This document shows, piece after piece, positions 7,096 to 28,644 of a stretch of DNA of 55,437 nt (its first letter is position 1; each line of letters begins with the position of its first letter). Source of the DNA: a virus (taxonomy: Duplodnaviria > Caudoviricetes); IMG/VR virus record IMGVR_UViG_3300037755_001185, positions 1-55,437 of that record; one strand, written 5' to 3'. The position numbers and the translations under genes are program-made. The notes under the pieces are model-generated. The model was not told the DNA's origin and searched no databases. It worked only from the letters and a program-made list of their open reading frames with translations.

Positions 7096-8324
7096 GCGAG
7101 ACCAACATCGTCGTGCATGATCTGCAACGCCAAGTGGGATACCTCCAGCAATGCCTATCCAGCGACAAGAAGCCCATTGGCCTCTTTCTTGGAGCGGGAT
7201 GCCCGATGGCGGTGCGGACGGGTACCGATGTGAAGCAGCCGCTTATCCCCGATATTGCCGGAATCACCAAGATAGTCTGTGACGAGTTGGCGAAGTGCAA
7301 CGAGTGCGGTCCTCTGCTCACCACCGTACAGGGGCACTTCACAAAGGACGGACGCAGCAGTTCGACCATCGAGGACATACTTACTCATATCCGTGCGCTT
7401 CGGGCCGTCGCGGGCCAAGACGACGTGCGTGGGTTGTCCGCCCAGAATCTTGACCAGTTGGACGAAGGCGTGTGCAGGCTGATCCACCAGGTCGCCGATA
7501 AGACGCTCCCTAATGCTGAGACGCCATACCACCGGATCGCCGCGTGGGTCGACGCTGTACGCCGTGAGAATCCAATCGAGGTATTCACCACTAACTATGA
7601 CCTGCTCATGGAGCAGGCCTTCGAGGATTGCTGCGTGCCCTACTTTGACGGCTTTGCTGGGGTGCGGAAGCCGTTCTTCGATCTTCGAGCGATGGAAGAG
7701 GACATGCTTCCTCCTCGATGGGCACGGCTATGGAAGCTGCATGGGTCCGTCAACTGGTATCAGGTCGCCAACAAGGGCGTGTTTCGCGGAACGACCTCAA
7801 ACGATGGCGATCTGAAGCGAGTGATCCATCCGTCGCACCTGAAGTATCAGGAAAGCAGGCGGATGCCGTATCTCGCCATGATCGACCGGCTGCGAGCATT
7901 CTTGAAACAGCCCACCGCCACGCTCATCATCTGCGGGTATTCCTTCCGGGATGAACATATCAACGAGGTCATCGTTCAGGGACTGCAATGCACGCAGACC
8001 GCCGTCGCCTTTGCGCTGATGTTCGACAAAGCCTCCATGTGCTCACAGGCGATCCCACTGGCAGCCAATCGCCCCAATCTGAACGTTCTCGCGCGGGACG
8101 GTGGAGTAATCGCAGGCAAGGAATCCATCTGGCCGGAGAACGACGCTGAGGCGGTGTCATCAGACACAGGGCGGTGGGTAACGTGGATGCCCGTAGACCC
8201 GGCGAACGACAAGGTCAAATGGCGGGCCGAGTTCGCACTTGGGGACTTCGCTGTCTTTGGGCAGTTCCTTCAGGAGGTGGTTGGCGTGGTCCGACAGGCA
8301 ATGGAGGTGCCCAGTGGCAAGTAG
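7092..8324 (+). CDS. SIR2-like (SIR2_2) NADase of a SIR2-HerA defence system
   Basis: FLGAGC, FTTNYDLLME, KLHGSVNW, CGYSFRDEHIN. Confidence 0.9.
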   Translation: MSETNIVVHDLQRQVGYLQQCLSSDKKPIGLFLGAGCPMAVRTGTDVKQPLIPDIAGITKIVCDELAKCNECGPLLTTVQGHFTKDGRSSSTIEDILTHIRALRAVAGQDDVRGLSAQNLDQLDEGVCRLIHQVADKTLPNAETPYHRIAAWVDAVRRENPIEVFTTNYDLLMEQAFEDCCVPYFDGFAGVRKPFFDLRAMEEDMLPPRWARLWKLHGSVNWYQVANKGVFRGTTSNDGDLKRVIHPSHLKYQESRRMPYLAMIDRLRAFLKQPTATLIICGYSFRDEHINEVIVQGLQCTQTAVAFALMFDKASMCSQAIPLAANRPNLNVLARDGGVIAGKESIWPENDAEAVSSDTGRWVTWMPVDPANDKVKWRAEFALGDFAVFGQFLQEVVGVVRQAMEVPSGK

Positions 8325-10182: not shown

Positions 10183-10388
10183 ACAGAACGCCAGTGAGTT
10201 CGTCATACGCCGCTTCGGTCGGCTACGACGCGAACACAACGACTCTTGAAGTCGAGCATCACGACGGGTCCGTATACCAATACTTCGACATTCCAGAAAC
10301 TGTGTATCGAGAGTTGATGCAGGCAAGCTCATTCGGGGCATTCATGCATACCGAAATCAGAGACCAATACCGATACACGAAGGTTTGA
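10179..10388 (+). CDS. KTSC domain protein
   Basis: RTPVSSS..SVGYD..TLEVE..G.VYQYFDIPETVYRELMQASSFGAF..IRDQY. Confidence 0.85.
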   Translation: MNRTPVSSSYAASVGYDANTTTLEVEHHDGSVYQYFDIPETVYRELMQASSFGAFMHTEIRDQYRYTKV

Positions 10389-10393
10389 AAAGA

Positions 10394-10434
10394 ATGACGA
10401 GACAGAACTCGAACTGATATGGATCGGCAACGAG
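10394..10434 (+). pseudogene. Scar of a Type III Mod gene 5' end
   Basis: ATG-ACG-AGA-CAG, then (1-nt shift) LELIWIGNE; 22/27 nt identical to Mod LELTWIGKE at 16236-16262. Confidence 0.6.
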
Positions 10435-10460
10435 ATCGAAAGGAGCTTTGAAGAGAACTG

Positions 10461-13316: not shown

Positions 13317-16222
13317 GCGGCAACAGCACACCATACAGTCCGCGCGGATCACAGTGGCATCGCTGGGATCTGCACGTGCATACTCCGTCTTCCTTTGATT
13401 ACCAAGACAAGAGCATCACAGACCAGCAAATCGTGGATTGCCTCGTGCAAGCGGGCTTGCGGGCCGTTGCTATAACCGATCACCACACCGTCGATGTTCT
13501 GCGGATCACAAAACTGCAGAAGCTGGGCGCGGACAAGTTGACAGTGTTTCCAGGCATTGAATTTCGGGGCGATCATGGCGGTGATCCGATCCACTACATC
13601 TGCATCTTTCCAGAGACCTGCAACCTCAATGATGTCTGGACGAAGCTTCAGGGGAAGTTGGGGCTGACGTCTACTGACATCGCGAGCAAGGGTGGTGATG
13701 ACAAGGTGTACGTGCCGATCGAGCAGGGAGCAAAGGAGGCACGAGCTCTCGGGGGTGTTGTATCGATCCATGCCGGTGCCAAGAGCAACTCCATCGAGGG
13801 GATCAAAAATAGGGAGCAGTTTCAGCAGCGCATCAAATACGACATTACCAATGAATGCGTTGACTTGATGGAGATTGGGCAGATCAAGGACATCGATCGG
13901 CATTACAAGACAATCTTCCCAGTTACTGGCTTGGAGAAGCCGCTCGTACTGTGTTCTGACAACCACAAGGTGACCGAGTATTCCACCAAATCGCCTCTCT
14001 GGTTCCGTGCCGATCCGACGTTTCGTGGGTTGCTTATGGTCCTGCGCGAACCGCGTGAGCGTATCTATATCGGTGATCGACCTCCCGAGTTGGTTCACGT
14101 CGAACAGAATCGTACGAAGTACATCAAATCCGTGTCGTTTCAGCGGCGAGCCACTCTCCCACATTCAGAGCAGTGGTTTGGCGACAAGGTTGAGTTTAAT
14201 TCTGGATTGGTGGCTATCGTTGGTAATAAGGGAAGCGGCAAGAGTGCTCTGTCAGACATACTTGGTTTGCTTGGCGCGACGAAGAATGGAGACGCGTTCA
14301 CTTTCCTGAACAAGGAGCGGTTCCGCCATCCGTCGAATAACCTCGCGTCGCATTTCGATGCCACGATTGAGTGGGAAGCGGGCGACACGGCGACGAAATG
14401 CCTTGCCGATGCCATCAAGCCCGAAGAAGTCGAGCGGCTGAAGTATCTCCCGCAGGATCACGTCGAGACCGTCTGCAATGAGCTGGCGGGCCTTGGCGAG
14501 GAAGGGTTCGAGCAGGAACTCAAGGCCGTAATTTTCTCGCATGTCCCGGAAGCGGAACGGCTGGGACACTCGACTCTCGACGACTTGGTTCGCTTCAAGA
14601 CTGGCGAGAAGCAAAAGAGGATCGATTCCCTACACAAACAGCTCCGCGATCTCAGTCGTTCCAGGGCACTGCTCGAAGCCCAGGCCGATCCCACGGTCCG
14701 GAAGGAACTAGCGGAGAAGATTTACCGGCGAAAACTGGAACTGGAGGCACATGATAAGGCCAAACCGGAGGCGGTCGTCGATCCCGCTGCGGATGGAAGT
14801 GCGCCAGCACCAGATGCGACCTTGCTTGGAGAACTGAAGACAGCGGAAACATCAAGGGTCACCCTCACCACTGACATCGCCAAACAGGCGGAAGCGTTGC
14901 GTGTAGCGGAACGCCGCAATGCCGTCGCGAAACGGCTCCTCGAGAAGCTCGACAACTTCGAAAAGGAATATGAGGTATTCAAGGCTTCGCTGACTGAGGA
15001 TGCTACTGAATTGGACCTTAAGCCGGACGAGTTGGTGTCCCTGACGATCACGCGCGGCAAGCCCGCCGGCATTCGGGACTCAGCCGCGACGGACTCAAAG
15101 GCGGTCAAGGACGCCCTTGACAAGGCCGAACCCCATGGGCTTCGGAAGCAGCTTGAGGGTGTCGAAGCAAAGCTCGCCGAACTTCAGACACAGCTCGACG
15201 CGCCAAATCGTGCCTATCAGAGCTACCTGAAGGCACTATCCGAATGGCAGACACAGCGGGTCGCCATTGAAGGCACTGCCACCGAGGTAGAGTCGCTGAA
15301 GGGGTTGGAACACAGCGTGACAGCCTTGGATGAACTGCCTGCCAAGATCGCGGCCGCGAGGGATCAACAGTTTTCTCTGGCACTGCAGATTCATTCTGAG
15401 AAGGACGACCAAGCAGCGGTCTATCGGAATCTATATTCGGCTGTTCAGGGGTTCATTGACTCCCATGTGCTGGCAAAAGATAAGCTAAAGCTCGAGTTCC
15501 GCACAGAGTTGACGAGCGAGGATTTCCCCGGACGGCTACTTGGTGCCCTGGCGCTGAACCGAAAAGGTAGCTTCATGGGTGTTGACGAAGGACGAGCCAA
15601 GGCAGAGTCGTTTGTTCAGGCGACCAACTGGGAGGACGCTTCTTCGTTGAAGGCATTCCTTACAGGTGTCGACGAGGCGCTCCATACGGATCAACGCGAG
15701 GGACAAGGCGGTCCCGTTCAACTGAAGGATCAACTCGCCAAAGGCCGGAAGCCCGAGGAGGTCTTCGACACTGTCTACGGGCTGGAGTACATCCGGCCGC
15801 GATACATCCTTCGGTGGGAAGGCAAGGACTTGTCGATGCTGTCGCCGGGAGAACGCGGGACGCTGCTCTTGGTGTTCTACCTGCTGATCGACAAGAGTGA
15901 TCTGCCCCTCATCATCGATCAACCCGAAGGCAACCTCGACAACCACACGGTTGCCAAGGTGCTTGTCGAGTGCATCAAGGAAGCCCGCAAGCGCCGCCAA
16001 GTGTTCATTGTAACGCACAATCCCAACTTGGCCGTCGTGTGTGACGCCGACCAGATCGTTCACGCGGAAATGGACAAGACCAACAGGAACACGATCACCT
16101 ATACGACCGGTTCGCTTGAGAATCCGAATATGAGCCAATACGTGACCGACGTGCTGGAAGGCACCCTCTGGGCCTTCCGTGTCCGAGACAAGAAGTACTC
16201 CGTGGGGGAAAGGAATGCCTAA
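13313..16222 (+). CDS. PHP phosphoesterase fused to SMC/ABC-type ATPase (TrlF/Ppl-like defence protein)
   Basis: WDLHVHTP, ITDHH, CSDNH (PHP); GNKGSGKS, coiled coil, LSPGERG, IIDQPEGNLDN, VTHNPN. Confidence 0.85.
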   Translation: MSGNSTPYSPRGSQWHRWDLHVHTPSSFDYQDKSITDQQIVDCLVQAGLRAVAITDHHTVDVLRITKLQKLGADKLTVFPGIEFRGDHGGDPIHYICIFPETCNLNDVWTKLQGKLGLTSTDIASKGGDDKVYVPIEQGAKEARALGGVVSIHAGAKSNSIEGIKNREQFQQRIKYDITNECVDLMEIGQIKDIDRHYKTIFPVTGLEKPLVLCSDNHKVTEYSTKSPLWFRADPTFRGLLMVLREPRERIYIGDRPPELVHVEQNRTKYIKSVSFQRRATLPHSEQWFGDKVEFNSGLVAIVGNKGSGKSALSDILGLLGATKNGDAFTFLNKERFRHPSNNLASHFDATIEWEAGDTATKCLADAIKPEEVERLKYLPQDHVETVCNELAGLGEEGFEQELKAVIFSHVPEAERLGHSTLDDLVRFKTGEKQKRIDSLHKQLRDLSRSRALLEAQADPTVRKELAEKIYRRKLELEAHDKAKPEAVVDPAADGSAPAPDATLLGELKTAETSRVTLTTDIAKQAEALRVAERRNAVAKRLLEKLDNFEKEYEVFKASLTEDATELDLKPDELVSLTITRGKPAGIRDSAATDSKAVKDALDKAEPHGLRKQLEGVEAKLAELQTQLDAPNRAYQSYLKALSEWQTQRVAIEGTATEVESLKGLEHSVTALDELPAKIAAARDQQFSLALQIHSEKDDQAAVYRNLYSAVQGFIDSHVLAKDKLKLEFRTELTSEDFPGRLLGALALNRKGSFMGVDEGRAKAESFVQATNWEDASSLKAFLTGVDEALHTDQREGQGGPVQLKDQLAKGRKPEEVFDTVYGLEYIRPRYILRWEGKDLSMLSPGERGTLLLVFYLLIDKSDLPLIIDQPEGNLDNHTVAKVLVECIKEARKRRQVFIVTHNPNLAVVCDADQIVHAEMDKTNRNTITYTTGSLENPNMSQYVTDVLEGTLWAFRVRDKKYSVGERNA

Positions 16223-17921
16223 CCACAAGATCAAGCTGGAACTCACCTGGATCGGCAAGGAGAACCGGCCGAATCTGGAGCCGCGGATTCTGATTGAAGC
16301 TCCAGAGAAGTCGTACCACGCCGCACACCGGGTCAGCGAGAGCGACCTCTTCGACAACCGGCTAATCTTTGGCGACAACCTCCTGGCCCTCAAGGCGCTG
16401 GAACAGGAGTTCACCGGCAAGATCAAGTGCATCTACGTCGACCCGCCGTTCAATACAGGACAAGCGTTCGACCACTACGAAGATGGGATTGAACACTCGC
16501 TCTGGTTGTCGCTCATGCGAGATCGAATTGCGTTGCTTTGGAAACTTCTCAGCCCCGATGGCACGCTGTGGGTACACCTTGATGACAACGAAGTGCACTA
16601 TCTGAAGGTGCTGATGGACGAGATATTCGGTCGTCAGTGCTTTGTGGCGTCGGTCGCATGGCGAGCCGCCGACTCGTCAAACAATGATGCGAAGCAGTTC
16701 TCTATCGACCACAACACGATTCTGGTCTACTCACGTGAGCCGGGGTGGTTGTCCCGCGCGTTGCCTCGCACAGATGAGGCCAACGCACATTACAAGAACC
16801 CAGATAATGATCCGCGCGGTCCATGGTTTATGGGCAACGTGTCGTCGCCGCATCCACGCGAAAAGCTTCAATATGACATGACAACGCCGTCGGGGACGAG
16901 TATCCCACACCCTCACAACGGCTGGCGTTGGAGTCGTGAGCTGGCGATGAAGAAAATCGAAGCTGGCCAGATCATCTTTGTCGATGACGATACTCGGATT
17001 GTTCATAAGACGTACCTTGCTGACCAGAAGGGATTGGCTCCCTCATCCATGTGGCATGATATCAAGCAGACCGGGCACAACAGACAGGCCAAGTACGAGC
17101 TCAAGAAGCTGTTCCCTGGCACTCCAACGACTGAGCTGTTTAGCACACCCAAACCAGAGCGACTGATTGAACGGGTGCTGCGGATAGCCACAGATGAAGG
17201 CGACTGGGTTCTCGATTCGTTTGCAGGCTCAGGCACTACGGGGGCGGTGGCGCACAAGTTGGGTCGTCGATGGGTGATGGTAGAACTTGGGGAGCACTGC
17301 CACGAGGTAATCGTCCCGCGTCTGCACAAGGTGATTGATGGCAGAGACAAGGGGGGTATCACGGATGCTGTCGAATGGAAAGGCGGTGGTGGATTCCGCT
17401 ACTACAAGCTCGGTCCGACGCTGATCGTCGAAGACGAATGGGGCAACCCCGTCATCAACAAGGCGTTCAACCCCGGCATGCTCGCCGAGGCGATGTGCAA
17501 GCTGGAGGGCTTCGAGTACGCACCGAGCGAAGACACCTATTGGATGCACGGTCACAGTTCCGAACAGGACTTCATCTATGTGACCACGCAGACGCTCACC
17601 CGCAGCCAGCTCCAACGACTGAGTGACGAGGTTGGCGAGAAGCGGAGTCTTCTGGTGATGTGCGCTGCCTTTCGAGTTCGCAAGGTCGAGGACCTCCCGA
17701 ACTTGACCGTGAAGAAGATTCCCAAGGCCGTCCTCAAGAAGTGCGAGTGGGGCCACGACGACTACTCGCTGGAGATCGCCAACCTTCCCGAAGCGCCGGC
17801 CATGTCCGAATCCGAGGAGGAGCCCAAGCCGGTCAAGGGCAAGCGGAAGTTCGGCAAGGGTAGGGCATCCGAGGCCAGTCTGTTCGCGGGCGCGGCCACC
17901 GATGATGCGGGAGGTGCATGA
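16215..17921 (+). CDS. mod: Type III restriction-modification methyltransferase Mod
   Basis: KLELTWIGKE start, GDNLLALK, YVDPPFN, TPKPERL, DSFAGSGTT. Confidence 0.9.
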   Translation: MPNHKIKLELTWIGKENRPNLEPRILIEAPEKSYHAAHRVSESDLFDNRLIFGDNLLALKALEQEFTGKIKCIYVDPPFNTGQAFDHYEDGIEHSLWLSLMRDRIALLWKLLSPDGTLWVHLDDNEVHYLKVLMDEIFGRQCFVASVAWRAADSSNNDAKQFSIDHNTILVYSREPGWLSRALPRTDEANAHYKNPDNDPRGPWFMGNVSSPHPREKLQYDMTTPSGTSIPHPHNGWRWSRELAMKKIEAGQIIFVDDDTRIVHKTYLADQKGLAPSSMWHDIKQTGHNRQAKYELKKLFPGTPTTELFSTPKPERLIERVLRIATDEGDWVLDSFAGSGTTGAVAHKLGRRWVMVELGEHCHEVIVPRLHKVIDGRDKGGITDAVEWKGGGGFRYYKLGPTLIVEDEWGNPVINKAFNPGMLAEAMCKLEGFEYAPSEDTYWMHGHSSEQDFIYVTTQTLTRSQLQRLSDEVGEKRSLLVMCAAFRVRKVEDLPNLTVKKIPKAVLKKCEWGHDDYSLEIANLPEAPAMSESEEEPKPVKGKRKFGKGRASEASLFAGAATDDAGGA

Positions 17922-17922
17922 A

Positions 17923-18948
17923 ATGGCCGATCCCACACCCCAGGGGCCACATGGCGAGTTCCTGCTCTACCAGACTGCCGACGGCCAGACCCGCGTCCAA
18001 TGCCTGTTTCAAGACGAGACGATCTGGCTGACCCAGCAACAGATGGCGGATTTGTTCGGCGTGGACAACTCCGGCGTCAGCAGGCACTTGCGGAATATCT
18101 TCGAGGCCGGCGAGCTGTCGCCGGGGGCAACCGTTGCAAAAATTGCAACGGTTCAGGTCGAGGGCGATCGGCGGGTCGAACGGGACATCGAACACTACAA
18201 CCTCGATGCGATCATCTCGGTGGGCTACCGGGTCAACAGCGTCCGAGGCACGCAGTTTCGCATCTGGGCGACGCAGCGGCTCAAGGAGTTCATGGTCAAG
18301 GGGTTCGTGCTCGACGATGAACGGCTCAAGCAGGGCAAGGCACTCTTCGGCAAGGATTACTTCGAGGAACTGCTCGAACGCATCCGTGAGATTCGAGCCA
18401 GCGAACGGCGGTTCTACCAGAAGATCACTGACATCTACGCCCTGTCGATCGACTATGACCGCAGCGCCCCGATCACCCGGGAGTTCTTTGCGACGGTTCA
18501 GAACAAGCTGCACTGGGCCATCACCGGCAAGACGGCGGCCGAGACTGTTCGGGATTCGGCCGATGCTGCGCTGCCTCACATGGGATTGACGACCTGGAAG
18601 AATGCCCCAGACGGTAAGGTGCTCAAGAGCGATGTTTCGGTGGCCAAGAACTACCTGAACGAAGCCCATATCAAAGAGCTCAACCGCATCATCTCGGCGT
18701 ATCTCGACCTCGCGGAGAATCGGGCCGAGCGCGGGCAGCTGATGAAGATGCAGGATTGGGCGAGATTCCTCAACAGCTTTCTGGAATTGGCGGACTACCC
18801 GATCCTCGAAGACGCGGGCAAAGTCAGCGCCCTCGAAGCCAAACTCAAGGCGGAAGGCGAATACGAAGTGTTTCGCAAGCAACAGGACCGCGATTACATT
18901 TCAGACTTTGACCGCGAGATCAAGCGGCTGGAAGGCGAGCAATCATGA
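17923..18948 (+). CDS. rhuM: RhuM-family (virulence RhuM) protein
   Basis: ETIWLTQQQMADLF, YNLDAIISVGYRVNS.RGTQFRIWAT, IREIRASERRFYQK. Confidence 0.9.
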   Translation: MADPTPQGPHGEFLLYQTADGQTRVQCLFQDETIWLTQQQMADLFGVDNSGVSRHLRNIFEAGELSPGATVAKIATVQVEGDRRVERDIEHYNLDAIISVGYRVNSVRGTQFRIWATQRLKEFMVKGFVLDDERLKQGKALFGKDYFEELLERIREIRASERRFYQKITDIYALSIDYDRSAPITREFFATVQNKLHWAITGKTAAETVRDSADAALPHMGLTTWKNAPDGKVLKSDVSVAKNYLNEAHIKELNRIISAYLDLAENRAERGQLMKMQDWARFLNSFLELADYPILEDAGKVSALEAKLKAEGEYEVFRKQQDRDYISDFDREIKRLEGEQS

Positions 18949-21656
18949 GCATTCAACAGGTCAACGCTATCAGCAACCGCCTGAGCCTTCGGCCGCCCCA
19001 GCGTGATTCGCTCGAAATCCTCGCACGGCTCTGTGAGATCATCACGCTCGAAAAGGACGGCGACACCGCCAAGGCTCTCGAAATCATCCGTTCGGAATTC
19101 CCACAGGTCGAAGACTTCGAGCGGGACTTTCCGTCGCTGTGCTTTGCGCTCGCAACTGGCGTGGGCAAGACGCGGCTGATGGGTGCGTTCATCGCGTATC
19201 TGTACCAGAGCCAGAACATCCGGCACTTCTTCGTGCTCGCCCCGAACCTGACCATCTACAACAAACTGATTGCCGATTTCACGCCGAACACCGCGAAGTA
19301 TGTCTTCAAGGGGATCGGGGAGTTCGCCCAATCACCACCGCTGATCGTGACAGGCGACAATTACCAGAGCGGTCGTGGCATTCGCAGGGAAGGCTATCTA
19401 CCTGGAGTGGATAGCTGGGAAGAAGATGTGCACATCAACATCTTCAATATCTCCAAGATCAACAGCGAAGTCCGTGGCGGCAAGTCCCCTCGAATCAAGC
19501 GGCTGAGCGAGTACATCGGCGAGAGTTACTTCGATTATCTGGCCGGGCTTGATGACCTCGTCATTCTCATGGATGAATCGCATCGCTACCGGGCCAGCGC
19601 CGGTGTGCGGGCGATCAACGAACTCAAACCGATTCTCGGTCTGGAACTGACTGCCACGCCACAGGTCGAACGTGGACAGCAAGCCGATCCGTTCAAGAAC
19701 GTGATCTACAGTTATCCGCTCTCCGCCGCGATGGATGACGGGTTCGTCAAGGAACCCGCAGTGGCAACGCGCGAGAACTTCGATCCCGCCGCATACACGG
19801 CCGACGGGCTGGAGAAGGTCAAGCTCGAAGACGGCGTGCGGATTCACGAAAACACCAAGGTTGAGTTGGAGGTGTACGCACGCAACAGCGACCAGACGAT
19901 TGTGAAGCCGTTCATGCTTGTGGTCGCACAGGATACAAACCACGCCAACGCCCTTCAGGACGTCATTGAGTCTGACCGCTTTTTCGAGGGGCGGTATCAG
20001 GGAAAGGTGATCACGGTCCACTCGAACATTCGGGGAGAGGAGAAGGATGAGGTGGTAGACCAGTTGCTGACGGTGGAGCACGCCGACAACCCGGTCGAGA
20101 TCGTCATCCACGTCAACATGCTCAAAGAGGGCTGGGACGTGACGAACCTCTACACGATCGTGCCGCTCCGAGCGGCGAATTCTCGCACGCTCGTGGAGCA
20201 GTCAATTGGCCGAGGCCTGCGCCTGCCGTACGGTCAACGGGTTGGTGTGCCGGCGGTGGATCGACTGACGATCGTCTCCCACGACAAGTTCCAGGACATC
20301 ATCGACCACGCAAACGACCCAAACTCAATCATTCGTACAGGCGTGGTGATTGGCCGTGATATCCCGAGCGACGGCAAGAAGGCGGTTGTTGTCGAGTCGC
20401 AGTTTGAGAAGATCATCTCGGGTGCAGCGCAGGCTGAGGGAACGACGGCCGTCGGCAATGGTCCGGCACTGTTCGACACGCCGGAAGAGCAGGAAGTGGC
20501 GAAGGCGACATTCCAGGTCATCAAGCAGTACGAACGGCTCAAAGGAAGCGATCAACTTCAGAACGCGGACGTGCAGAATGACATCGTGCGAAAGGTTCAG
20601 GAGATTGTTCGGCCGACTCAAGGGGTACTTGCGGGAATCGCCGAGCCGGTGGATGTTGCGGTGGTCGTCCAGAAGACGACAGCTTTGTATCGCGATCGCT
20701 CCATCGACGTACCGCGGATCGTGGTTGTGCCACTGGGCGATGTCGTTTCGGGCTACGGGGATTTCGATCTCGATACGAGCAACATCAATCTCCAGCCCGT
20801 CGATCAAGACATCCTGATCCAACATCTGCACGATCACCAGCGCTACAAACTGCGCGACGGCTCTGGCATCGTCGAGGAGAATCGACCGGAGAACTACCTT
20901 GTACGAGGCCTCATCGACTACGACGACATCAGCTATGACGACCACGCGAGTCTGCTCTACAAGTTGGCCGGACAGGTTGTCGAGCATCTGCGTTCATACC
21001 TGGCCGACGATGATCAGGTTGTCAATGTGCTGCAATACCACCAGCAGGGACTTGTGAAACTGATCCACTCGCAAATGCAGGGGCATTTCGTGGAGGAGGC
21101 CGCGGGCTATGAGGCTCATGTGACCAAGGGCTTCCGCACCCTTCGAGCAAATAACTACACGGCAGGCGCTTCCGAGACGGTGCGTAACTTCAGGACGTCT
21201 ATTCCCGATGGCGACAAAAGCCGGATCCGGACAATGCTGTTCGGTGGCTTTTCCACGTGCCTGTACCCCGAACAGAAGTTCGACACGGATTCAGAACGGC
21301 GCTTCGCTGTCATTCTTGAAAACGAGGACGAAGTACTCAAATGGTTCAAACCCGCAACGGGAGACTTCCAGATTCACTACAGCCAGGAGTCGTCCTATGA
21401 GCCGGACTTCGTCGTCGAGACGAAGACTGAGAAGTTGCTCTGCGAACCCAAGCGTGCCAGCGAGATGACGGACGATGTTGTTCTCGCCAAGGCGGAGGCG
21501 GCCGCAGTCTGGTGTGAGCACGCGAGCCAGCACGCGAAGGACGGTGACGGCAAGCCCTGGAAGTACCTGCTGATTCCACACGATGCGATCACGGACCAGA
21601 TGACCCTCAGCGGGCTGGCCGCTCGATACGAGGTTCACACGAAGTCCACGAAATGA
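18945..21656 (+). CDS. res: Type III restriction endonuclease Res subunit
   Basis: LATGVGKT, MDESH, LTATP, LKEGWDV, QSIGRGLR, C-terminal YEPDFVVE..LCEPK nuclease motif. Confidence 0.9.
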   Translation: MSIQQVNAISNRLSLRPPQRDSLEILARLCEIITLEKDGDTAKALEIIRSEFPQVEDFERDFPSLCFALATGVGKTRLMGAFIAYLYQSQNIRHFFVLAPNLTIYNKLIADFTPNTAKYVFKGIGEFAQSPPLIVTGDNYQSGRGIRREGYLPGVDSWEEDVHINIFNISKINSEVRGGKSPRIKRLSEYIGESYFDYLAGLDDLVILMDESHRYRASAGVRAINELKPILGLELTATPQVERGQQADPFKNVIYSYPLSAAMDDGFVKEPAVATRENFDPAAYTADGLEKVKLEDGVRIHENTKVELEVYARNSDQTIVKPFMLVVAQDTNHANALQDVIESDRFFEGRYQGKVITVHSNIRGEEKDEVVDQLLTVEHADNPVEIVIHVNMLKEGWDVTNLYTIVPLRAANSRTLVEQSIGRGLRLPYGQRVGVPAVDRLTIVSHDKFQDIIDHANDPNSIIRTGVVIGRDIPSDGKKAVVVESQFEKIISGAAQAEGTTAVGNGPALFDTPEEQEVAKATFQVIKQYERLKGSDQLQNADVQNDIVRKVQEIVRPTQGVLAGIAEPVDVAVVVQKTTALYRDRSIDVPRIVVVPLGDVVSGYGDFDLDTSNINLQPVDQDILIQHLHDHQRYKLRDGSGIVEENRPENYLVRGLIDYDDISYDDHASLLYKLAGQVVEHLRSYLADDDQVVNVLQYHQQGLVKLIHSQMQGHFVEEAAGYEAHVTKGFRTLRANNYTAGASETVRNFRTSIPDGDKSRIRTMLFGGFSTCLYPEQKFDTDSERRFAVILENEDEVLKWFKPATGDFQIHYSQESSYEPDFVVETKTEKLLCEPKRASEMTDDVVLAKAEAAAVWCEHASQHAKDGDGKPWKYLLIPHDAITDQMTLSGLAARYEVHTKSTK

Positions 21657-21757
21657 CAAACGTGCCATGGGCCACATCCGACCTGTACGACTTTCGCGAA
21701 CACGTAGATGGCGAGATGTGGTCAAGCTGACAGCCATGGAATTAGAAGGGGCAGTCG

Positions 21758-24172
21758 ATGCCATCTGGATACGAACCAAAGGATCACATTCAGCGACTGG
21801 AGGTAGCGCCTCGTGCCGAGGGCATCCTGGACCAGCGTGAGATCACGATCCAGTCGTACCAGACGACGGTGCCGTTCGACCGCGATGCATTGGATGCTGC
21901 GTTGGAAAGCGCATGGCTCGCGCCGCAGATTCGCTTTGGCGTATTCTCTCGCGTTCCTCATGTGTCAAGGGGCGCTCAAAGCCGACCACTGATAGGCGCT
22001 TTGGGTGTACCACCTCGATCGGGGGCCAACGCCATCGCTACTTCACCGCCAACCCCTCGCAGTCCAGAGGATGAAGGGCTTCACGGTGAAGAAACAAAGG
22101 CTCCCCGGGTGGTACTCCCAAAGCGCCATTTCGTGGCCGGTATTGAAGCGCCCGGTGACATTCCTGATGGGACGGAAGCCCTGAATGTCGTGCTTGGTCT
22201 CCAGGACGACTTGTCTGTGCGAGCCTATGACTATGACGCGCGCCGGCCGTTGTGGTACTCGTGGCAGAATGCCATCGTCGACACGGTGAACATACATTAC
22301 ACCAGTGATGACGAGGGATATCTACGTTTCACGGCGGTGGGCGGCGGACGACGCATTACAGACGACAGGCTGTACGAGTTTAACTCCACATTCCTTGGAA
22401 TACCAAAGGACGCTGTAAGCAAGCTACATTTCGATCTCGCGAAGCTCCGCGAACTCTGCTTCAGCCGATTCATCGATCGACTCTACATGATTCGGTTCTC
22501 GCACCCCTCTGGCGAGGAGTACCGGAGCATTGACCATGCGCTGTTCCAAAGCCGGCAGTACATTGATCCCGAGACGCAGCGCCTCCAAGAGGTGCGTGCC
22601 GATGAGACTGGCACCATCGAGTCATTCGATTCCGATGTTGAAGTCCGGTCGGACGATCTCGCCTCACCGATTCAAGTTCGCTTCTTCATCCGTGGCCTCA
22701 GCGGCTCACTGCGACTCCGCTTTCCCAAGACTCAATTCAAGACTCAAATCAAAACACCGGAGGATCAAGCCCGCGTCTTCTACCGCATTGTCGGTATCGC
22801 GGAAAAGCTGATTTTGGACGCCGACTACTACACGAAGCAACGGTACTCGCTGGAAGACCTCAAAACAGACCTTGTATTGATCCCCGACTTGGTGGACCTC
22901 ACGCCATTTCGGAAGGTGATGACGAGCGAAGCGGCTCGGAAAGAGTTCCTGTCCGGCATCAATTTGGCAGCGCCATGGCAAGAGTGGCGGCCGCACCTTC
23001 GAGCTCTCGACGAGTTGCTGCCACTGGAGCACATCGCGGACCATGTGGCCAAACTCACCGGTGAGTTGGTGAGGCGTGATCCCCTCATGACCTCACGGCT
23101 GCTGGCGGAATGTCAGGCCGACTCAAAGATCAACCGAATGGACACGGTCGTTGCCAATGTGGTGGCGAATGAAATCCATGCGATCCCCGCAGAAGTGAGA
23201 GCGCAGCTGGAAGAAGCACTTCTGTCGTGGGCGATTGAGCGGGAGCAGGAATCGTGGGATGTCGATCCAGACTCTGGCGAGATCATGGTCCTCAATCTCC
23301 GATGGCCGAAGGCGGACCTGTCGCTTGATGTGCTCACAGCCGTGCTCGGGAAGCTGGTCGGCGTGCTGCATGCACGCCTCGTTGATTCCACTGGCGACAC
23401 GGGCGCATTGTTGAGGCGGTTCAATTGGTGCATGATTGCCGCGAGAGATTTGCCGCCAAACCACTCCAAACTGTCGCCTGCGTTTCGGCTTGTAGCAGAG
23501 AGCCGTGTGCCCTCTTCCCTTGCGGAAGGTGCGAAGGTGATCAGGGGACGAGTCACCGACTTACACGCCCTTGATGACGCCATCATGGACCAATTCGGCC
23601 TCCCTCTCTGGCCTTGCCTGACGGCGTCACGCGAGAACGGGCAGGTGACGTTGCGGAACACCGGCATCGGAATGGCGAGAGCCATGCTGGCAACGCCATC
23701 GGGAACTCTGTTCAGCGACAAAGAAGCCACAGCCGAGATCGATCTGTGTCCCGAGCAGTCCGTTCAGTTGGCCGTATCCGGTGCTCCTGCATCGTTGGAT
23801 GTCCGGTTCACGAAATATGGCGAGGAGCGTCGAATCCAGGTGCCGATCACGAACGCGAAACGGGCCACATCCTCGGCGCTACCTGGCTCACAAATGCAGC
23901 CAGAGACTGTGTCTTTCGACTGGGCGAAGCAAGTGGAGCTTTGTCGTGCCGTCGAACGAGTTCTGGGCGAGGGGGAGTCTCCTGACAGGGGGACGATTTC
24001 CAAGGCCGTGCGCGCTGGTCAGTTGGAATCCAATGGACAGTCGGGGCGCGCATGCCGTGTGAAGGTCGATAGCTTTAAGGCATGGATCACCAAGGCCAAA
24101 GAACTCGCGAACGATGAGGTACTCCAGATCATGGATGCCGTCATGAACGAAATCCGCAGCCGAAAACGATAG
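21758..24172 (+). CDS. Large hypothetical protein with C-terminal HTH-like domain
   Basis: 804-aa ORF; last ~85 aa similar to the C-terminus of the next ORF. Confidence 0.7.
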   Translation: MPSGYEPKDHIQRLEVAPRAEGILDQREITIQSYQTTVPFDRDALDAALESAWLAPQIRFGVFSRVPHVSRGAQSRPLIGALGVPPRSGANAIATSPPTPRSPEDEGLHGEETKAPRVVLPKRHFVAGIEAPGDIPDGTEALNVVLGLQDDLSVRAYDYDARRPLWYSWQNAIVDTVNIHYTSDDEGYLRFTAVGGGRRITDDRLYEFNSTFLGIPKDAVSKLHFDLAKLRELCFSRFIDRLYMIRFSHPSGEEYRSIDHALFQSRQYIDPETQRLQEVRADETGTIESFDSDVEVRSDDLASPIQVRFFIRGLSGSLRLRFPKTQFKTQIKTPEDQARVFYRIVGIAEKLILDADYYTKQRYSLEDLKTDLVLIPDLVDLTPFRKVMTSEAARKEFLSGINLAAPWQEWRPHLRALDELLPLEHIADHVAKLTGELVRRDPLMTSRLLAECQADSKINRMDTVVANVVANEIHAIPAEVRAQLEEALLSWAIEREQESWDVDPDSGEIMVLNLRWPKADLSLDVLTAVLGKLVGVLHARLVDSTGDTGALLRRFNWCMIAARDLPPNHSKLSPAFRLVAESRVPSSLAEGAKVIRGRVTDLHALDDAIMDQFGLPLWPCLTASRENGQVTLRNTGIGMARAMLATPSGTLFSDKEATAEIDLCPEQSVQLAVSGAPASLDVRFTKYGEERRIQVPITNAKRATSSALPGSQMQPETVSFDWAKQVELCRAVERVLGEGESPDRGTISKAVRAGQLESNGQSGRACRVKVDSFKAWITKAKELANDEVLQIMDAVMNEIRSRKR

Positions 24173-24205
24173 CGGAACTTTTCCGTTTACTGAACGGACA
24201 CTGTT

Positions 24206-26425
24206 TTGGGTTCATACATGATAGAGAATGTGAACTGTGGGTCGGGTAGCTACCTGTTTGCTTGCTTTGGCGGCGATTTGATTTGTTCGCCGGCAACAGT
24301 ATTTGGTCGCATCAACGACGATTCTCTAATCCCATCTCTCATTGCCCTTCTAGAGAAAGAATACGGCGGTGAGGGCAATCCGAGCTTCCATGCCCAACCC
24401 GTGACCGACACCGAAGAGGCGGACCAGATTCTGCTCGATGAGGCCATCGACGAGCTGGCCATATACGACGATCCTGATCCCGGCATCTACGATCCGCCAC
24501 CATCGCGGCAGACAATGCTGAGGGCCTTCTACGCGCAACGGACGGAAAAGTGGACCGAGATGCTGCTGTCCAGGAAGTCCAAGACATCCACTTCGCCGAA
24601 CACCAACGGCAGCCCATTGTCCGATGACGTGCTCCTGCAGATTTGCCGCACTCCGACCGATGACGAGCGAGTTACCGCAGAGTGGATGGCAGATCTGCGG
24701 CTCATGGCTTCACTCGTCGATGCCAGCCGCAACTCGAATCGGATTGGCCTGGAACACGCCGTGACCTTGCTGGCTGGATGCATCGGCCAGCTTCCGCAGT
24801 ACAACCCCACCCACCTGCCGTTCGGATACAGTGGCCCAACAATCAAATCGCATCATTGGATGGACCACGACGCTCTGGAGCAGATCGCGAAGCAGATAGT
24901 CGGCTTGATCTGGCACGACGTGGACCCTGATGTTGTGGCGTCTGATGTCACACGATGCGTTTCTGAGGCGATCCGTCTTGGCTTCATCGAGCAACAAGAG
25001 TACGACGCCTGGAGGCCGGGAATGCGGAGCGGATCGGGTTGGCGCACCGCAGTGACTGCTACCCCTTACGGCATGACGAAGGCGCGAACCTTTTTCGAGG
25101 TGGCCACGCCACCCGAGGACAAGGAGTCGGACCAGACTCCGGTCCGGCAGCTTGCAGCGGCTCTCAAAGAGCTGCGACTGGCCACCGGCGAACTGCTCAT
25201 TTGTTCTGAAAAGGAGGACATCTATCCGGATATGGAGATCATGACGTATCACCAGGCTCTGCGCGATGCCGAGTCCCGTGTTGATGGTATTGGCGCTCAC
25301 CTTGCATACGGTCGCGAGAAACCAGGGCAGATCGAAACAGACCTCCGCGAGACGCTCCACAACTTGTCGTCGGCAGTCGGGTATGTCGCCTCTGACTACA
25401 ACGACCAGCCTGGAGCGTATCCACTGCCGAAGGAGATCACTGCGCCGGGATGGGAAGCACTGAAGGGCCTCAGGCCCCTCGAAATGGTATTGGCCATGAC
25501 GACGATGAAGCCCGGCGATTTGGAGATGCCGGTGGAAGACCGGCGCGTGTCAGGCCTCATTCTCCTCATGCTCCTGGCGCAGGCCTACTACAAAATGCTG
25601 GAGTGCGTCATCTCGATGGCCAGCTGGTGCTCGGCACTCGACGTGGAGTTGAACCAATCCTATTTGTGGGTCACCAGCAGCCTGACAAATCTGCTGAAGA
25701 ACCACGAGGATCTCAAAGACTTCCCGGTCGAATTCAAATCGATCTTCGATGATCTGTATCCGTCGACGGTCCGCGACCTCGAGTGGGAAGACATGGTGGC
25801 TCCCGAAGTCGAGCGGTTCCTCAGCACCGTCCAGAGGTACGTTCACGAGAATGGTGTCTACGAGCCCGAAGAGGGTTCAACGGCATGGACGTTTGTCCAA
25901 CTGTTCCGCCCCTCGGTCGACACAGCAATCTCTCGCGCCCTGGACTATCACAAGCGCATGCGCCAGTACGCCCAGAAGGCGTTTGCGGGAATATCCGCAG
26001 GCGGGAGCATTCAGGCGGGCGGCGCAATCAATGCCGCCGGTGAGATCAATGCCGGTGGAGAGTTTGCAGCTGGAGGGGATGTCCGGGCGGGTTCGCCATC
26101 TCCCGCAACCCCTTTGACGAAGCCATCCGGAACAACAGTGGCAGCAAACCCTATCGCCTCGAAAGACAGCACGTACGAATGGGCCAGACAGACTGAGCTG
26201 GTGCGAGCCACCGATCAGGTTCTTGGCCAAGGCACGCTCAGCCCGGGCGTGCTCTCCCGGGCATGTGGCCACCAGATCGAGACGAATGGCAAGCGCGGCC
26301 AAGGCTCCCGTGTGAAGGTGAGAAGTTTCCTTCCCTGGGTCACGCGCAAGTTCAACCTCGCCAAGGGCGAACAGACTCAGATTCGCAACGCCATCATTGG
26401 CGAGATCAACGAGCGCAACTCGTAG
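24206..26425 (+). CDS. Large hypothetical protein with Gly-rich hexapeptide repeats and C-terminal HTH-like domain (start uncertain)
   Basis: 739-aa ORF; AGGxIx repeats; shared WARQ.EL.RA...VLG.G..NG..G...RVKV.SF..W domain. Confidence 0.7.
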   Translation: MGSYMIENVNCGSGSYLFACFGGDLICSPATVFGRINDDSLIPSLIALLEKEYGGEGNPSFHAQPVTDTEEADQILLDEAIDELAIYDDPDPGIYDPPPSRQTMLRAFYAQRTEKWTEMLLSRKSKTSTSPNTNGSPLSDDVLLQICRTPTDDERVTAEWMADLRLMASLVDASRNSNRIGLEHAVTLLAGCIGQLPQYNPTHLPFGYSGPTIKSHHWMDHDALEQIAKQIVGLIWHDVDPDVVASDVTRCVSEAIRLGFIEQQEYDAWRPGMRSGSGWRTAVTATPYGMTKARTFFEVATPPEDKESDQTPVRQLAAALKELRLATGELLICSEKEDIYPDMEIMTYHQALRDAESRVDGIGAHLAYGREKPGQIETDLRETLHNLSSAVGYVASDYNDQPGAYPLPKEITAPGWEALKGLRPLEMVLAMTTMKPGDLEMPVEDRRVSGLILLMLLAQAYYKMLECVISMASWCSALDVELNQSYLWVTSSLTNLLKNHEDLKDFPVEFKSIFDDLYPSTVRDLEWEDMVAPEVERFLSTVQRYVHENGVYEPEEGSTAWTFVQLFRPSVDTAISRALDYHKRMRQYAQKAFAGISAGGSIQAGGAINAAGEINAGGEFAAGGDVRAGSPSPATPLTKPSGTTVAANPIASKDSTYEWARQTELVRATDQVLGQGTLSPGVLSRACGHQIETNGKRGQGSRVKVRSFLPWVTRKFNLAKGEQTQIRNAIIGEINERNS

Positions 26426-26451
26426 CGCAACTTGCCCGTTTGAAGTTGCGC
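26425..26451. promoter_or_regulatory. Operator-like inverted repeat GCGCAACTT-N9-AAGTTGCGC
   Basis: Perfect 9-bp arms upstream of the phage early operon; further TTGCGC half-sites near 26530-26546. Confidence 0.5.
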
Positions 26452-26634
26452 ACAGAGTACTTCTGAACTTTTCTTCGCCTGTCAGCATTGCCCAAACGGC
26501 AGGAACTGAGGCTCTGGGCCGCTTTCTTGTTGCGCTTTCGTTGCGCTGAAAAAGCATCTGATTAACTGGCCTCATCGCAGTTGCTCAGGCCTGCATAGTG
26601 CTTGCCTCAGACAACCTGCAGAAAGGTCTGTTCA

Positions 26635-26964
26635 ATGGTCGCAAACGTAGCGAAGACCAGTCTGACCCCCTCCCAGCTGAGGCTCCTCACCGAGATGCAG
26701 CGGATCAACTACGGCCGCATCCTCGATCTGCCGGTGCGCCGTGGCGAGCCGGTGTTGGACCCGCCGTCGCGCGTCATGCGCGAGATCAAGTTCGGCGGAG
26801 ACAACGGACCGCGCCCCGAAGCCGTCAAGGCCGACTTTGCGCTCAAGGCCCAGGTCCGCGATCTCTTCGCCTGCCTGGAGTCGATGGGTGATGGCGTGAT
26901 CTCGTGCATCGAGATTCAGCGCGGTCTGCCGTTTCGGATGACCGTCGAGGAGGTGAGCGCCTGA
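26635..26964 (+). CDS. Conserved phage hypothetical protein (first early gene)
   Basis: MQRINYGRILDLPVRRGEP..REIKFGG..DFALKAQV..IEIQRGLPFRM; AAAGG RBS. Confidence 0.7.
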   Translation: MVANVAKTSLTPSQLRLLTEMQRINYGRILDLPVRRGEPVLDPPSRVMREIKFGGDNGPRPEAVKADFALKAQVRDLFACLESMGDGVISCIEIQRGLPFRMTVEEVSA

Positions 26965-27034
26965 GCAAAGGGGCTGGACTCCCCATATGTGATTCAAACA
27001 AACTGATTACCTGACAACAAACCGGCCACGAAGT

Positions 27035-27141
27035 GGAGGCGTTGTGGGTGCCGCAGATGCGGCAATCCTGCAACGCCTCCTCTGCGTGCGCGATCGCTGC
27101 ATCGACTGGTTCCCACATGACGCCTCCCGGCCGACGGGAGG
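27035..27141 (+). promoter_or_regulatory. Candidate cis-regulatory RNA switch controlling the sigma-factor RBS
   Basis: GGAGGCGTTGTGGG can pair with 27071-27080 or with 27112-27127; CCTCCCG/CGGGAGG hairpin covers the RBS. Confidence 0.55.
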
Positions 27142-27146
27142 TCCAA

Positions 27147-27743
27147 TTGGACACCAATCGAAAGCACGAAGAACTCACCGAGTACGCACTTGAAGTCGTT
27201 CACCACAAAGCCCGGCAGCTGGTCGGCAAGGCCGGCTACACGAATGACGATGTCGCGGACATCGAACAGGATCTGATCACAGACCTGCTCGAGCGTCTGC
27301 CGAAGTTCGATCCAAGCAAGGCGACCCACAACACGTTCGTCGCCCGCCTGGTCGAACGGAAGATCAGCAATCTGCTTCGTGATCGTCTGGCAGCGATGCG
27401 TGACTGTCGCCGTGAGGACTGCTCACTCAACGACGAGATCGACACCGGCGATGAAGAGCCGCCCACGCAACGCGTCGCCACCATCAGTCAGGACGAGCAC
27501 GACCTGCGGACTGGCAAGTACGCCCGGCCCGCCGAGGAGCGCGCCGATCTGCGCTGCGACATCGAAGCGGTGCTGGCCGTGTTGCCGCCGGAGTTGCGTG
27601 AGGACGCAGACATGTTGGCCGTCATGCCCATCACAGAAGTCGCCCGCACACTCGGCGTGCCGCGCGCCACGTTCTACGACAACTACCTCGCCAAGATCCG
27701 CGCGGTGTTCGAGGACAAGGGGCTCAACGGCTACCTGACGTGA
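27147..27743 (+). CDS. Phage-encoded sigma-70 (ECF-like) factor
   Basis: Region 2-like DDVADIEQDL..KFDPSKA..TFVARLVERKISNLLR and region 4 HTH ITEVARTLGVPRATFY; TTG start after GGGAGG. Confidence 0.75.
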   Translation: MDTNRKHEELTEYALEVVHHKARQLVGKAGYTNDDVADIEQDLITDLLERLPKFDPSKATHNTFVARLVERKISNLLRDRLAAMRDCRREDCSLNDEIDTGDEEPPTQRVATISQDEHDLRTGKYARPAEERADLRCDIEAVLAVLPPELREDADMLAVMPITEVARTLGVPRATFYDNYLAKIRAVFEDKGLNGYLT

Positions 27744-27751
27744 TCCTCTCT

Positions 27752-27786
27752 CCGACAGTCTGTCCCAGCGCCGGGTAAGTAACCAG
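27752..27786 (+). promoter_or_regulatory. Bipartite motif CCGACA-N13-CCGGGTAAGTAACCAG (copy 1), putative phage sigma promoter
   Basis: Same boxes and spacing as 41541-41575; lies just upstream of the recombination operon. Confidence 0.65.
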
Positions 27787-27834
27787 AGACGGCCTGGGCA
27801 GGCTGCTTCGGTGACTTGAAAGCGAGTGAACGCA

Positions 27835-28644
27835 ATGGACCTGACGATCGACCTGAACATCCTCGAAATTGAACCCGCTGAGGAGTACCACGCCAAGGCG
27901 AGTCGATTCCTGTCGAGCCATCAACTCCTGGACTTCATCAAATGCCCGTGGCTTCATCGCAAGAAGTCACTTGGCCTCATCGCGGACAGTGAATCACCGG
28001 CGTATCTCGTCGGCCGGGCGGCTCATGTGCGCATCCTCGAAGGCCGTGATGTGTACGAAGCGGCCTTCGCGATGGGCGGGCCGGTTAACCCCAAGACGGA
28101 CAAGCCGTTCGGGACAAACACGAAGGCGTTTGCCGAGTGGGCTGAAGCCCAGGGCAAGCCGGTGCTCTCACACGATCAGGTTCAGCTCATTGAGCAGATG
28201 GCATCGGGCGTGGCCGTGAACACTGAGGCCGTTGACCTTCTGCTGCATGGCCGGGCTGAAGGCGTTGTGCGCAATGAATATTGCGGGACGCCATGTCAGA
28301 TTCGCATCGACTGGGTGCATCCTCACCGTGGGATCGTGGACTTCAAGACCTGTGATGATCTGACCTGGTTTGAGTCGGACGCGCGCCGGTACGGCTACCA
28401 CCGGCAAATGGCGTTCTACCGAGCCATCCTGGCGCGGGCTTGCGGTAACCAGCCGGTCCCCGTCCACCTCGTCGCAGTCGAAAAGCGTGAGCCATTCCGT
28501 TGCGGCGTGTGGCGTATCAGCGACGACACGTTGGCTATCGCCGAGCGCGAGAACGCCGCTGCGATTCGTCGATGGCTGGATTGCCACCAGCGCGATCATT
28601 GGCCCACTGGATACGAGGAAGTTCGTGTCCTCGATGTGGCCTGA
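27835..28644 (+). CDS. PD-(D/E)XK exonuclease-like protein (RecE/DUF3799-like)
   Basis: EEYHA..LSSHQL, GRAAHVRILEG, CQIRIDW, IVDFKT, YGYHRQMAFY. Confidence 0.8.
   Translation: MDLTIDLNILEIEPAEEYHAKASRFLSSHQLLDFIKCPWLHRKKSLGLIADSESPAYLVGRAAHVRILEGRDVYEAAFAMGGPVNPKTDKPFGTNTKAFAEWAEAQGKPVLSHDQVQLIEQMASGVAVNTEAVDLLLHGRAEGVVRNEYCGTPCQIRIDWVHPHRGIVDFKTCDDLTWFESDARRYGYHRQMAFYRAILARACGNQPVPVHLVAVEKREPFRCGVWRISDDTLAIAERENAAAIRRWLDCHQRDHWPTGYEEVRVLDVA

Follow-up and report, generated by a model that had tools for sequence, protein, structure and literature searches.

The 137 bases (27010-27146) that precede a sigma-factor gene in the phage genome IMGVR_UViG_3300037755_001185 (IMG/VR virus record) form a genuine cis-regulatory RNA, which is conserved and seems to be undescribed. 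The window analyzed was the whole record, i.e., 55,437 bp with a completeness judged to be 100%, a G+C content of 61%, and genes located nearly all on the plus strand. In our reading, to which we assign a probability of about 0.6, this leader acts as a multi-state translational switch of competing helices for the mRNA of a phage ECF-type (extracytoplasmic function) sigma factor. The initial annotation of this DNA had proposed that a segment A pairs either with a segment B or with a segment C, and that these mutually exclusive pairings gate the ribosome-binding site (RBS) of the sigma gene. Both pairings proved to be conserved and to covary in 32 distinct leaders. Judged from these sequences, a 5′ hairpin (P0), a long hairpin (P1), a hairpin burying the Shine-Dalgarno (SD) sequence (P3), the long-range A:C helix and an additional helix (H2) all appear to be under selection. 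Hence, the two families of folds that they define must both matter.

The leader sits in a 182-nt intergenic gap between a conserved gene of unknown function, ending at 26964, and the sigma open reading frame (ORF), starting at 27147. The sigma protein matched TIGR02937 with 43.3 bits (cut-off of 42.9, residues 8-176) and phrog_1740, annotated as “RNA polymerase sigma factor”, with an E-value of 6e-12, while the score of Pfam Sigma70_r2 (22 bits) was under its cut-off of 24. According to these family models, the predicted product of the regulated gene is an ECF (group 4) member of the sigma-70 family with regions 2 and 4. The similarity to the sigma relatives begins at residue 1, confirming the TTG start codon (27147-27149); the homologous codon in the 32 distinct leaders is ATG in 21, GTG in 9 and TTG in 2.

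Relatives were retrieved by similarity of the sigma protein alone, then by alignment of five proteins. Sigma-homologous loci were found on 3 genome contigs, 14 viral contigs and 24 metagenome contigs, and 32 of them carried a full-length leader (26 distinct sequences). Nine further leaders from genomes led to a final set of 35 leaders, 32 of them distinct. Two alignments were used, a structure-naive MAFFT alignment (A2) and an alignment of the final set (A6), which was fitted to State I (see below) only and hence cannot favour the alternative State II. Pairing and covariation were compared with slid controls and with 500 shuffles, the shuffle counts not being probabilities for sequences that are related to each other.

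The segments A, B and C, the inner hairpin, the anti-SD/SD pair and the TTG codon were all found where the initial annotation had placed them, and a repeat finder gave the same arms. A is read as GGAGGCGTTGTGGG at 27035-27048. B had been described as CAACGCCTCC (27071-27080); the true segment is 14 nt long and pairs with the whole of A via two G-U pairs. C had been described as CCCACATGACGCCTCC (27112-27127). This core of the anatomy was sound and missed four elements, namely the pairing of A with an upstream segment Z, the extension of the A:C helix by A′ and C′, helix H2, and the pairing of the start codon.

The minimum free energy (MFE) fold of 27010-27160 comprised the A:B hairpin, with the inner hairpin (27049-27064) on top of it, and the anti-SD:SD hairpin, with an energy of -75.9 kcal/mol. 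Over 200 dinucleotide shuffles of this interval, the mean was -53.6 kcal/mol (z-score of -4.80) and no shuffle was as stable. In this closed fold, referred to as State I, P1 starts with a base helix between the 3′ half of Z and the flank of B, followed by A:B and then by the inner hairpin. In the relatives, the equivalent of this base helix, CGGCCACG:UGUGGUCG, was 85.7% paired. P3 buries the SD, the anti-SD CCTCCCG (27123-27129) being paired with CGGGAGG (27135-27141) within the hairpin 27122-27129:27135-27142, while CCAC is paired to the start-codon region through CCA of C′ (27113-27115) and UGG (27148-27150). In the stable fold, the SD and the start codon are therefore paired with the upstream anti-SD strand, as in an SD-sequestering switch. 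State I was the MFE fold in all 32 distinct leaders. On A2, 88.3% of its cells were paired (38-52% in slid controls) and 8 pairs were changed on both sides, a number reached by none of the 500 shuffles. On A6, 89.6% of the cells were paired and 19 pairs were changed on both sides, including 9 in the A:B helix (helix 3 of State I), which was 93.6% paired. In the SD hairpin, all 8 pairs were changed on both sides in some leaders.

The competing fold, State II, is a long-range helix of 20-24 bp between A with its following bases and C with its preceding bases. The 5′ arm of the inner hairpin (A′, 27049-27054) enters this helix, and the loop and 3′ arm of the same hairpin (27056-27063) pair with 27096-27103 to form H2. 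In all of 26 leaders, the predicted energy of the A/A′:C′/C duplex was between -25.1 and -41.2 kcal/mol. On A2, 90.8% of the State II cells were paired (slid controls, 37-54%), with changes on both sides in 6 pairs (equalled by 1 of 500 shuffles) and in 13 cells (0/500). The corresponding values on A6 were 86.0%, 10 pairs (3/500) and 26 cells (0/500). The informative changes fall in A′:C′ and H2, which are dispensable for State I: A′:C′ was 93.1% paired on A6, its pairs 50:127 and 51:126 (in A′) were changed on both sides in 3 leaders each, and changes on both sides were also observed among the H2 pairs. The four pairs between Z (CGGCC, 27023-27027) and the loop of the SD hairpin were 85-92% paired and none was changed on both sides. 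Sequence comparison and folding thus agree on a mutually exclusive helix that is predicted to take the anti-SD off the SD.

The most divergent leaders provide further support for a specific match between A and its partners. When A from such leaders was confronted with 16 non-cognate C partners, none was as good as the cognate one for L003, L013 and L017, and only one was for L023. This duplex partner test was unsuited to Z:A, for which other registers were picked. L013 and L023 show changes in A that have counterparts in Z, B and C. In L047, GGAGG of A is changed to GAAGG, and CCUCC is changed to CCUU(C) in both B and C. Because the SD of this leader remains G-rich while C carries CCUU, the change in C matches A and not the SD.

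The 5′ hairpin P0 (Z:A, 27013-27045) was first proposed by RNAalifold, which on the MAFFT alignment returned a mixed consensus of P0, A′:C′ and the SD hairpin (-23.5 kcal/mol). This consensus lacks P1, unlike the MFE fold of every single sequence. In P0, ACAAC (27014-27018), CC (27022-27023) and CCAC (27026-27029) of Z pair with GUUGU, GG and GUGG of A, respectively, and the interval 27010-27048 folded on its own at -12.6 kcal/mol. P0 was 99.2% paired on A2 (28-64% in slid controls) with 4 pairs changed on both sides (0/500 shuffles), and 96.6% paired on A6 with 13 cells changed on both sides (0/500), through AU-to-GC and AU-to-UA replacements. P0 is incompatible with P1. When it was enforced, the best fold in 27 of 32 leaders was State III, which combines P0, A′:C′, H2 and the SD hairpin. 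The conserved bases of the leader are explained by these competing helices; P0 is also predicted to contain two small conserved internal loops, which could bind something. The coordinates of all elements are collected in Table 1.

Table 1. Positions of the leader segments, State II helices and flanking features in the 55,437-bp window.
Feature	Position	Strand	Remarks
Conserved gene of unknown function, 109-aa core	26635..26964	+	Alignment of 16 orthologues
Small hairpin GGGG(N7)CCCC	26970..26984	+	Just 3′ of the upstream stop codon; A+T-rich spacer after it
Segment Z	27013..27029	+	Pairs with A in the 5′ hairpin P0; RNAalifold lead
Segment A (anti-anti-SD), GGAGGCGUUGUGGG	27035..27048	+	Alternative partners Z, B or C
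Inner hairpin TGCCGCA/TGCGGCA	27049..27064	+	Sits on top of P1
Segment B, CCUGCAACGCCUCC	27067..27080	+	Pairs with A to form P1, the long hairpin of State I
3′ flank of B	27082..27088	+	Lengthens the P1 base by pairing with 27027-27033
3′ strand of H2, GCUGCAUC	27096..27103	+	Partner 27056-27063 in States II and III
Segment C′ (UGGU.CCCACA)	27107..27117	+	Pairs with A/A′ (27043-27053) in State II
Segment C with anti-SD, ACGCCUCCCG	27120..27129	+	Pairs with SD (State I) or A 27035-27042 (State II)
SD-hairpin loop GGCCG	27129..27133	+	Pairs with Z CGGCC 27023-27027 in State II
Shine-Dalgarno arm, CGGGAGGU	27135..27142	+	Equilibrium unpaired probability 0.002-0.039
ECF-type sigma-factor gene, TTG start, 198 aa	27147..27743	+	TIGR02937, phrog_1740; start set by relatives
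State II helix A:C	27035-27042 / 27120-27127	+	
State II helix A:C′	27043-27048 / 27112-27117	+	
State II helix A′:C′	27050-27053 / 27107-27110	+	
State II helix Z:SD-hairpin loop	27023-27027 / 27129-27133	+	
State II helix H2	27056-27063 / 27096-27103	+	

The functional meaning of the two families of folds was approached through predicted energies, the enforced states being obtained with duplex-based constraints in 32 leaders. The cost of opening the RBS had a median of 13.1 kcal/mol in State I and of 4.4 kcal/mol in State II, and was lower in State II for all 32 leaders. The initial claim that A:B leaves the RBS blocked holds for the predicted ground state. As for its counterpart, that A:C frees the RBS, State II would expose this site to a large extent, the SD arm being still partly paired. 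State III lies above State I by a median of 13.4 kcal/mol. Barriers were estimated with findpath in 18 of the 32 leaders and, as values for direct paths, are upper bounds: 30-59 kcal/mol from State I to State II, 22-55 kcal/mol from State II to State I, a median of about 9.5 kcal/mol from State III to State II, and a median of 5.9 kcal/mol from P0 to P1 once B is made.

From these values, the following mechanism can be proposed. In State I, the predicted ground state, A would be held by B in P1 (27020-27111), the anti-SD in C would lie on the SD and CCA on the start region, and ribosome loading would be blocked. In the alternative family, A′ would pair with C′ and H2 would form, A being held either by Z (State III, in which the SD remains buried) or by C (State II). 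In the latter case, the anti-SD would be removed from the SD, and the ribosome site would open at about one third of the cost predicted for State I. Because the predicted barriers between States I and II are very high, the choice is probably made during transcription, within a short interval between the emergence of B and that of C′. Unaided, B should quickly displace Z and lock the mRNA in the off state. As the model has B winning unaided, we infer an effector, i.e., a protein, RNA or small ligand which, by stabilizing P0 or masking B, would channel the mRNA into the translatable family. The antisense or protein trigger suggested in the initial annotation is a guess. We hold this co-transcriptional, factor-dependent version of the switch only tentatively, at somewhat below even odds. 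The more specific proposal that P0 serves as sensor in a riboswitch-like element of a new class, in which the binding of a phage or host factor or of a small molecule during the ~30-45-nt interval of transcription from B to C′ irreversibly decides between a shut and a translatable mRNA, is more doubtful still.

Several points weigh against the reading of the leader as a switch. State I is favoured in every leader, State II lying above it by a median of 10.0 kcal/mol (range 0.9-25.3 over the 32 leaders, 1.7 in the present phage), and State II is a fold put forward from prediction and comparison; all these energies and barriers are model estimates. Even in the modelled State II, 139 of 249 SD positions are still paired in short helices, vs. 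221 of 249 in State I. The low barrier from P0 to P1 implies that unaided folding should end in the off state, so that the route to the on state needs an effector. Most pairs are invariant, and it is a handful of divergent lineages that contribute the compensatory changes, which therefore represent few independent events. In L027, the cognate C was not preferred, 9 of 16 non-cognate partners being as good. The plus strand was more stable than the minus strand in 22 of 26 leaders by only a modest gap (mean of -4.35 kcal/mol), and a consensus scan of 26400-27400 revealed no promoter-like site.

Alternative explanations were weighed against the same data, the possible ones being ranked from a timer acting without any factor, through later activation by a helicase, a small RNA (sRNA) or an RNase, to a static damper. 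The leader could be a self-contained kinetic timer, the nascent RNA folding via P0 into the A′:C′ family and being translated for a while before it falls irreversibly into State I, which would deliver a pulse of sigma factor per mRNA. Such behavior would be in keeping with the assignment of every conserved leader base to a competing helix, leaving no obvious ligand pocket, with the modest barriers predicted between States II and III, as against the isolation of State I, and with the two conserved G-U pairs atop A:B, which are Watson-Crick pairs in A:C′ and would slow the invasion by B. The MS2 and hok precedents, as far as they are presented in the relevant part of PMC6733600, point in the same direction. 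However, the barrier from P0 to P1 is only about 6 kcal/mol, so that B should oust Z long before C′ is transcribed, and barriers of 22-55 kcal/mol from State II to State I would make the relaxation slower than any mRNA lifetime. We therefore regard the timer as unlikely. A little less probable is activation after transcription, in which an inert State I would be opened later by an RNA helicase, by an sRNA complementary to B, or by cleavage of the roughly 30-bp P1 by RNase III, A then capturing C. RNase III recognises duplexes of the size of P1, and P1 is a long, nearly perfect duplex within a fold that is the MFE structure in 32 of 32 leaders. The portion of PMC6524683 dealing with lambda cIII offers a precedent. 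Nevertheless, cleavage of P1 would detach A from the mRNA, with C staying on the SD, P0 would be left without a role, and no significant sequence complementary to the leader was found in the 55-kb genome. The best complement there (28008-28029, plus strand, inside the exonuclease gene) matched 27114-27136 at 21 of 23 bases with an E-value of 1.4 and is probably due to chance; in the flanks of the relatives, trans-complementary sites were at chance level only and none recurred.

The leader might also have no other function than State I, i.e., a constitutive damper of translation, in which the A:C complementarity would be a by-product of SD-like and anti-SD-like sequences. Cross-pairing of GGAGG with CCUCC motifs is unavoidable, the MFE fold is State I in every case, and distant sigma relatives that lack the leader retain an anti-SD:SD hairpin. 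We nonetheless consider this improbable: A′:C′ and H2 lie outside the SD-like motifs and are not needed for State I, yet they have stayed paired where both sides changed; segment C of L047 has a C-to-U change that fits A and not the SD; and P0 covaries though it is incompatible with State I. There is very little to recommend a transcription attenuator, with P1 as intrinsic terminator and P0 as antiterminator controlling read-through. P0 and P1 do compete for A in the classical arrangement, and L024 has UUUUUUU directly after P1, a position that is U-rich in L017 and L049 as well. But just 3 of the 32 leaders contain at least 5 U within the 9 nt after P1, the scan of 26400-27400 gave no terminator-like site, and A:C, H2 and the SD hairpin would be unexplained. 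Finally, the conservation could hardly reflect a coding region (for a leader peptide or for additional N-terminal residues of sigma) or a palindrome acting at the DNA level (operator or cruciform). GGAGG followed by GTG at 27044 opens a frame of 49 codons, and the sigma frame is open back to 27033; in 26 leaders, however, the frame from the GUG in A occurs in all three phases relative to sigma, with 14 to 235 codons and no conserved frame, and the B-to-C interval carries indels whose lengths are not multiples of three. Likewise, the arms are inverted repeats in DNA too, whereas the conserved G-U pairs and the G-U-preserving changes fit a plus-strand RNA, and the element is present in a single copy per genome. 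The switch of competing helices is thus the reading that we retain.

The suggestion that the element is undescribed was borne out by the Rfam search, in which no Rfam 15 family overlapped the leader at E ≤ 10 in 26000-28500, and no match was obtained at E ≤ 0.5 in seven related loci; nor did searches of a collection of open-access papers yield a description of such a leader. The covariation in homologous leaders recommended as a check likewise turned out in favour of the proposal, pairing being kept through compensatory changes in the competing helices.

Translational riboswitch platforms with anti-SD and anti-anti-SD strands are known, e.g., E. coli thiM. By analogy, A would be either locked in a sensor helix or paired with the anti-SD strand C, which otherwise buries the SD. 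Unlike in these platforms, no recognisable aptamer is present here, the “sensor” being a long regular hairpin and a small 5′ hairpin, and A has three alternative partners (Z, B and C). A second likeness is with type I toxin mRNAs having metastable structures, i.e., hok mRNA of plasmid R1 and aapA3 mRNA of Helicobacter pylori, which, in the section of PMC6733600 devoted to them, have a metastable 5′ hairpin guiding the folding, a stable inert conformer with the SD under an anti-SD, and covarying exclusive helices. P0, which covaries and is incompatible with P1, corresponds to a metastable 5′ hairpin of this kind. In contrast to what that section describes, the gene here is a phage sigma gene and not a toxin gene, and the inert state is reached via a local anti-SD rather than through a long-distance interaction of the 5′ with the 3′ end; no antisense RNA was found for the leader, nor was a 3′ processing signal of the hok/aapA type noted. 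The 5′ untranslated region of the MS2 maturation gene, as outlined in the same article (PMC6733600), is blocked at the ribosome site in its equilibrium fold and translated in a transient fold. It resembles the present element in being a phage leader with a closed equilibrium fold and a proposed translatable alternative; MS2 is, as outlined there, an RNA phage and no effector is involved, whereas the kinetics predicted here favour immediate closure, which a simple delay fits less well. In the mRNA of phage lambda cIII, two alternative structures set the rate of translation initiation (Altuvia et al., 1989, as cited in PMC6524683). The two systems share alternative mRNA structures of a phage regulatory gene; in the citing passage of PMC6524683, those of cIII involve the beginning of the coding sequence and are regarded as a thermosensor, while the switch described here lies wholly in the 137-nt leader and has a median closed bias of 10 kcal/mol. 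The leader belongs to none of the compared families, and its logic is that of the anti-SD/anti-anti-SD platforms.

A covariance model of the leader (R1) found one copy in the 55-kb genome, its other matches being at E-values of 0.58-0.95 or on the minus strand of the same palindrome; no further leader copy in the phage genome was detected by DNA search either. A 12-mer, CCGGCCACGAAG, occurs at two other sites, and a wider pattern gave 12 matches vs. 6.9 expected (5 of 100 shuffles gave as many), in unrelated coding contexts; this candidate was dropped. Among 401 sampled genomes of the phylum to which locus L002 (from a Phycisphaerae bacterium) belongs, which suggests that the sample represents Planctomycetota, 39 had sigma relatives. 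This suggests widespread prophages or domesticated copies. Several sigma copies are present in some of these genomes, G067 having 7 matches (loci L048-L067, genomes G002-G403). R1 matched 8 of 20 genome loci fetched from this sample. It was unmatched in the other 12, in the distant sigma relatives L029 and L038-L043, and in loci whose sigma is only 23-36% identical. One metagenome-assembled genome carries two leader copies, L045 and L047 (G003:C37:118-260, minus strand), one of them, recovered with R1, being highly divergent. The distant relatives L029, L040-L043, L059 and L067 have no leader, yet their SD, often together with the start codon, lies in a strong anti-SD:SD hairpin; hence, sequestration of the RBS is a wider habit of this sigma gene family.

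In the relatives, the gene with the 109-aa core is always found immediately 5′ of the leader. Its product, with a mean column identity of 68% over 16 aligned orthologues, had no match in Pfam, PHROG or NCBIfam. An AlphaFold2 model (predicted local distance difference test, pLDDT, of 82.4) consists of two repeats of a helix plus a beta-hairpin, and its comparison with the PDB returned nothing at E ≤ 0.001 (top VIA Z of 3.0). This protein is a possible partner of the leader RNA. The upstream gene also contains A-like or SD-like strings able to pair with B or C, e.g., UGGAGGCGUUG in L001, L007 and L008, at -260 to -250 from the sigma start, and GAGGAGG near the end of the gene in most relatives (26947-26953 here); these strings are within coding sequence and may be a coincidence. 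The form of the GGGG(N7)CCCC hairpin recurs in most homologous loci, and this hairpin may belong to the leader or mark the boundary of an operon. Further upstream, eight large ORFs (348-969 aa) on the plus strand at 8239-26425 precede the sigma region, the last of which (24206-26425) had no match in Pfam or PHROG. Directly 3′ of the sigma gene are genes for an exonuclease VIII-like PDDEXK protein, a Sak4-like annealase and SSB. The sigma gene therefore heads a recombination/replication block, a position that suggests a role in the transcription programme of the infection. The initial annotation had linked the regulator to prophage commitment. This finds no support in a complete 55-kb phage genome that shows no match to integrase PF00589 or resolvase PF00239 anywhere and in which the gene stands at the head of such a block.

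Phage sigma factors reprogramme the host RNA polymerase, and the timing of their own synthesis is known for a few model phages only. If the proposed switch is true, the control of phage development in a little-studied group of hosts would gain a checkpoint at the RNA level. The leader would, moreover, be a clear example from nature of several helices that exclude one another, all with compensatory support, which would be useful for studies of co-transcriptional folding and for RNA switch design. Should the relay of four partners (Z, B or C for A, and the SD for C) operate as proposed, it would be a natural, kinetically committed strand-displacement circuit. If, in addition, P0 is the sensor, the leader would serve phages of Planctomycetota-type hosts as an RNA checkpoint setting the time at which transcription becomes sigma-dependent.

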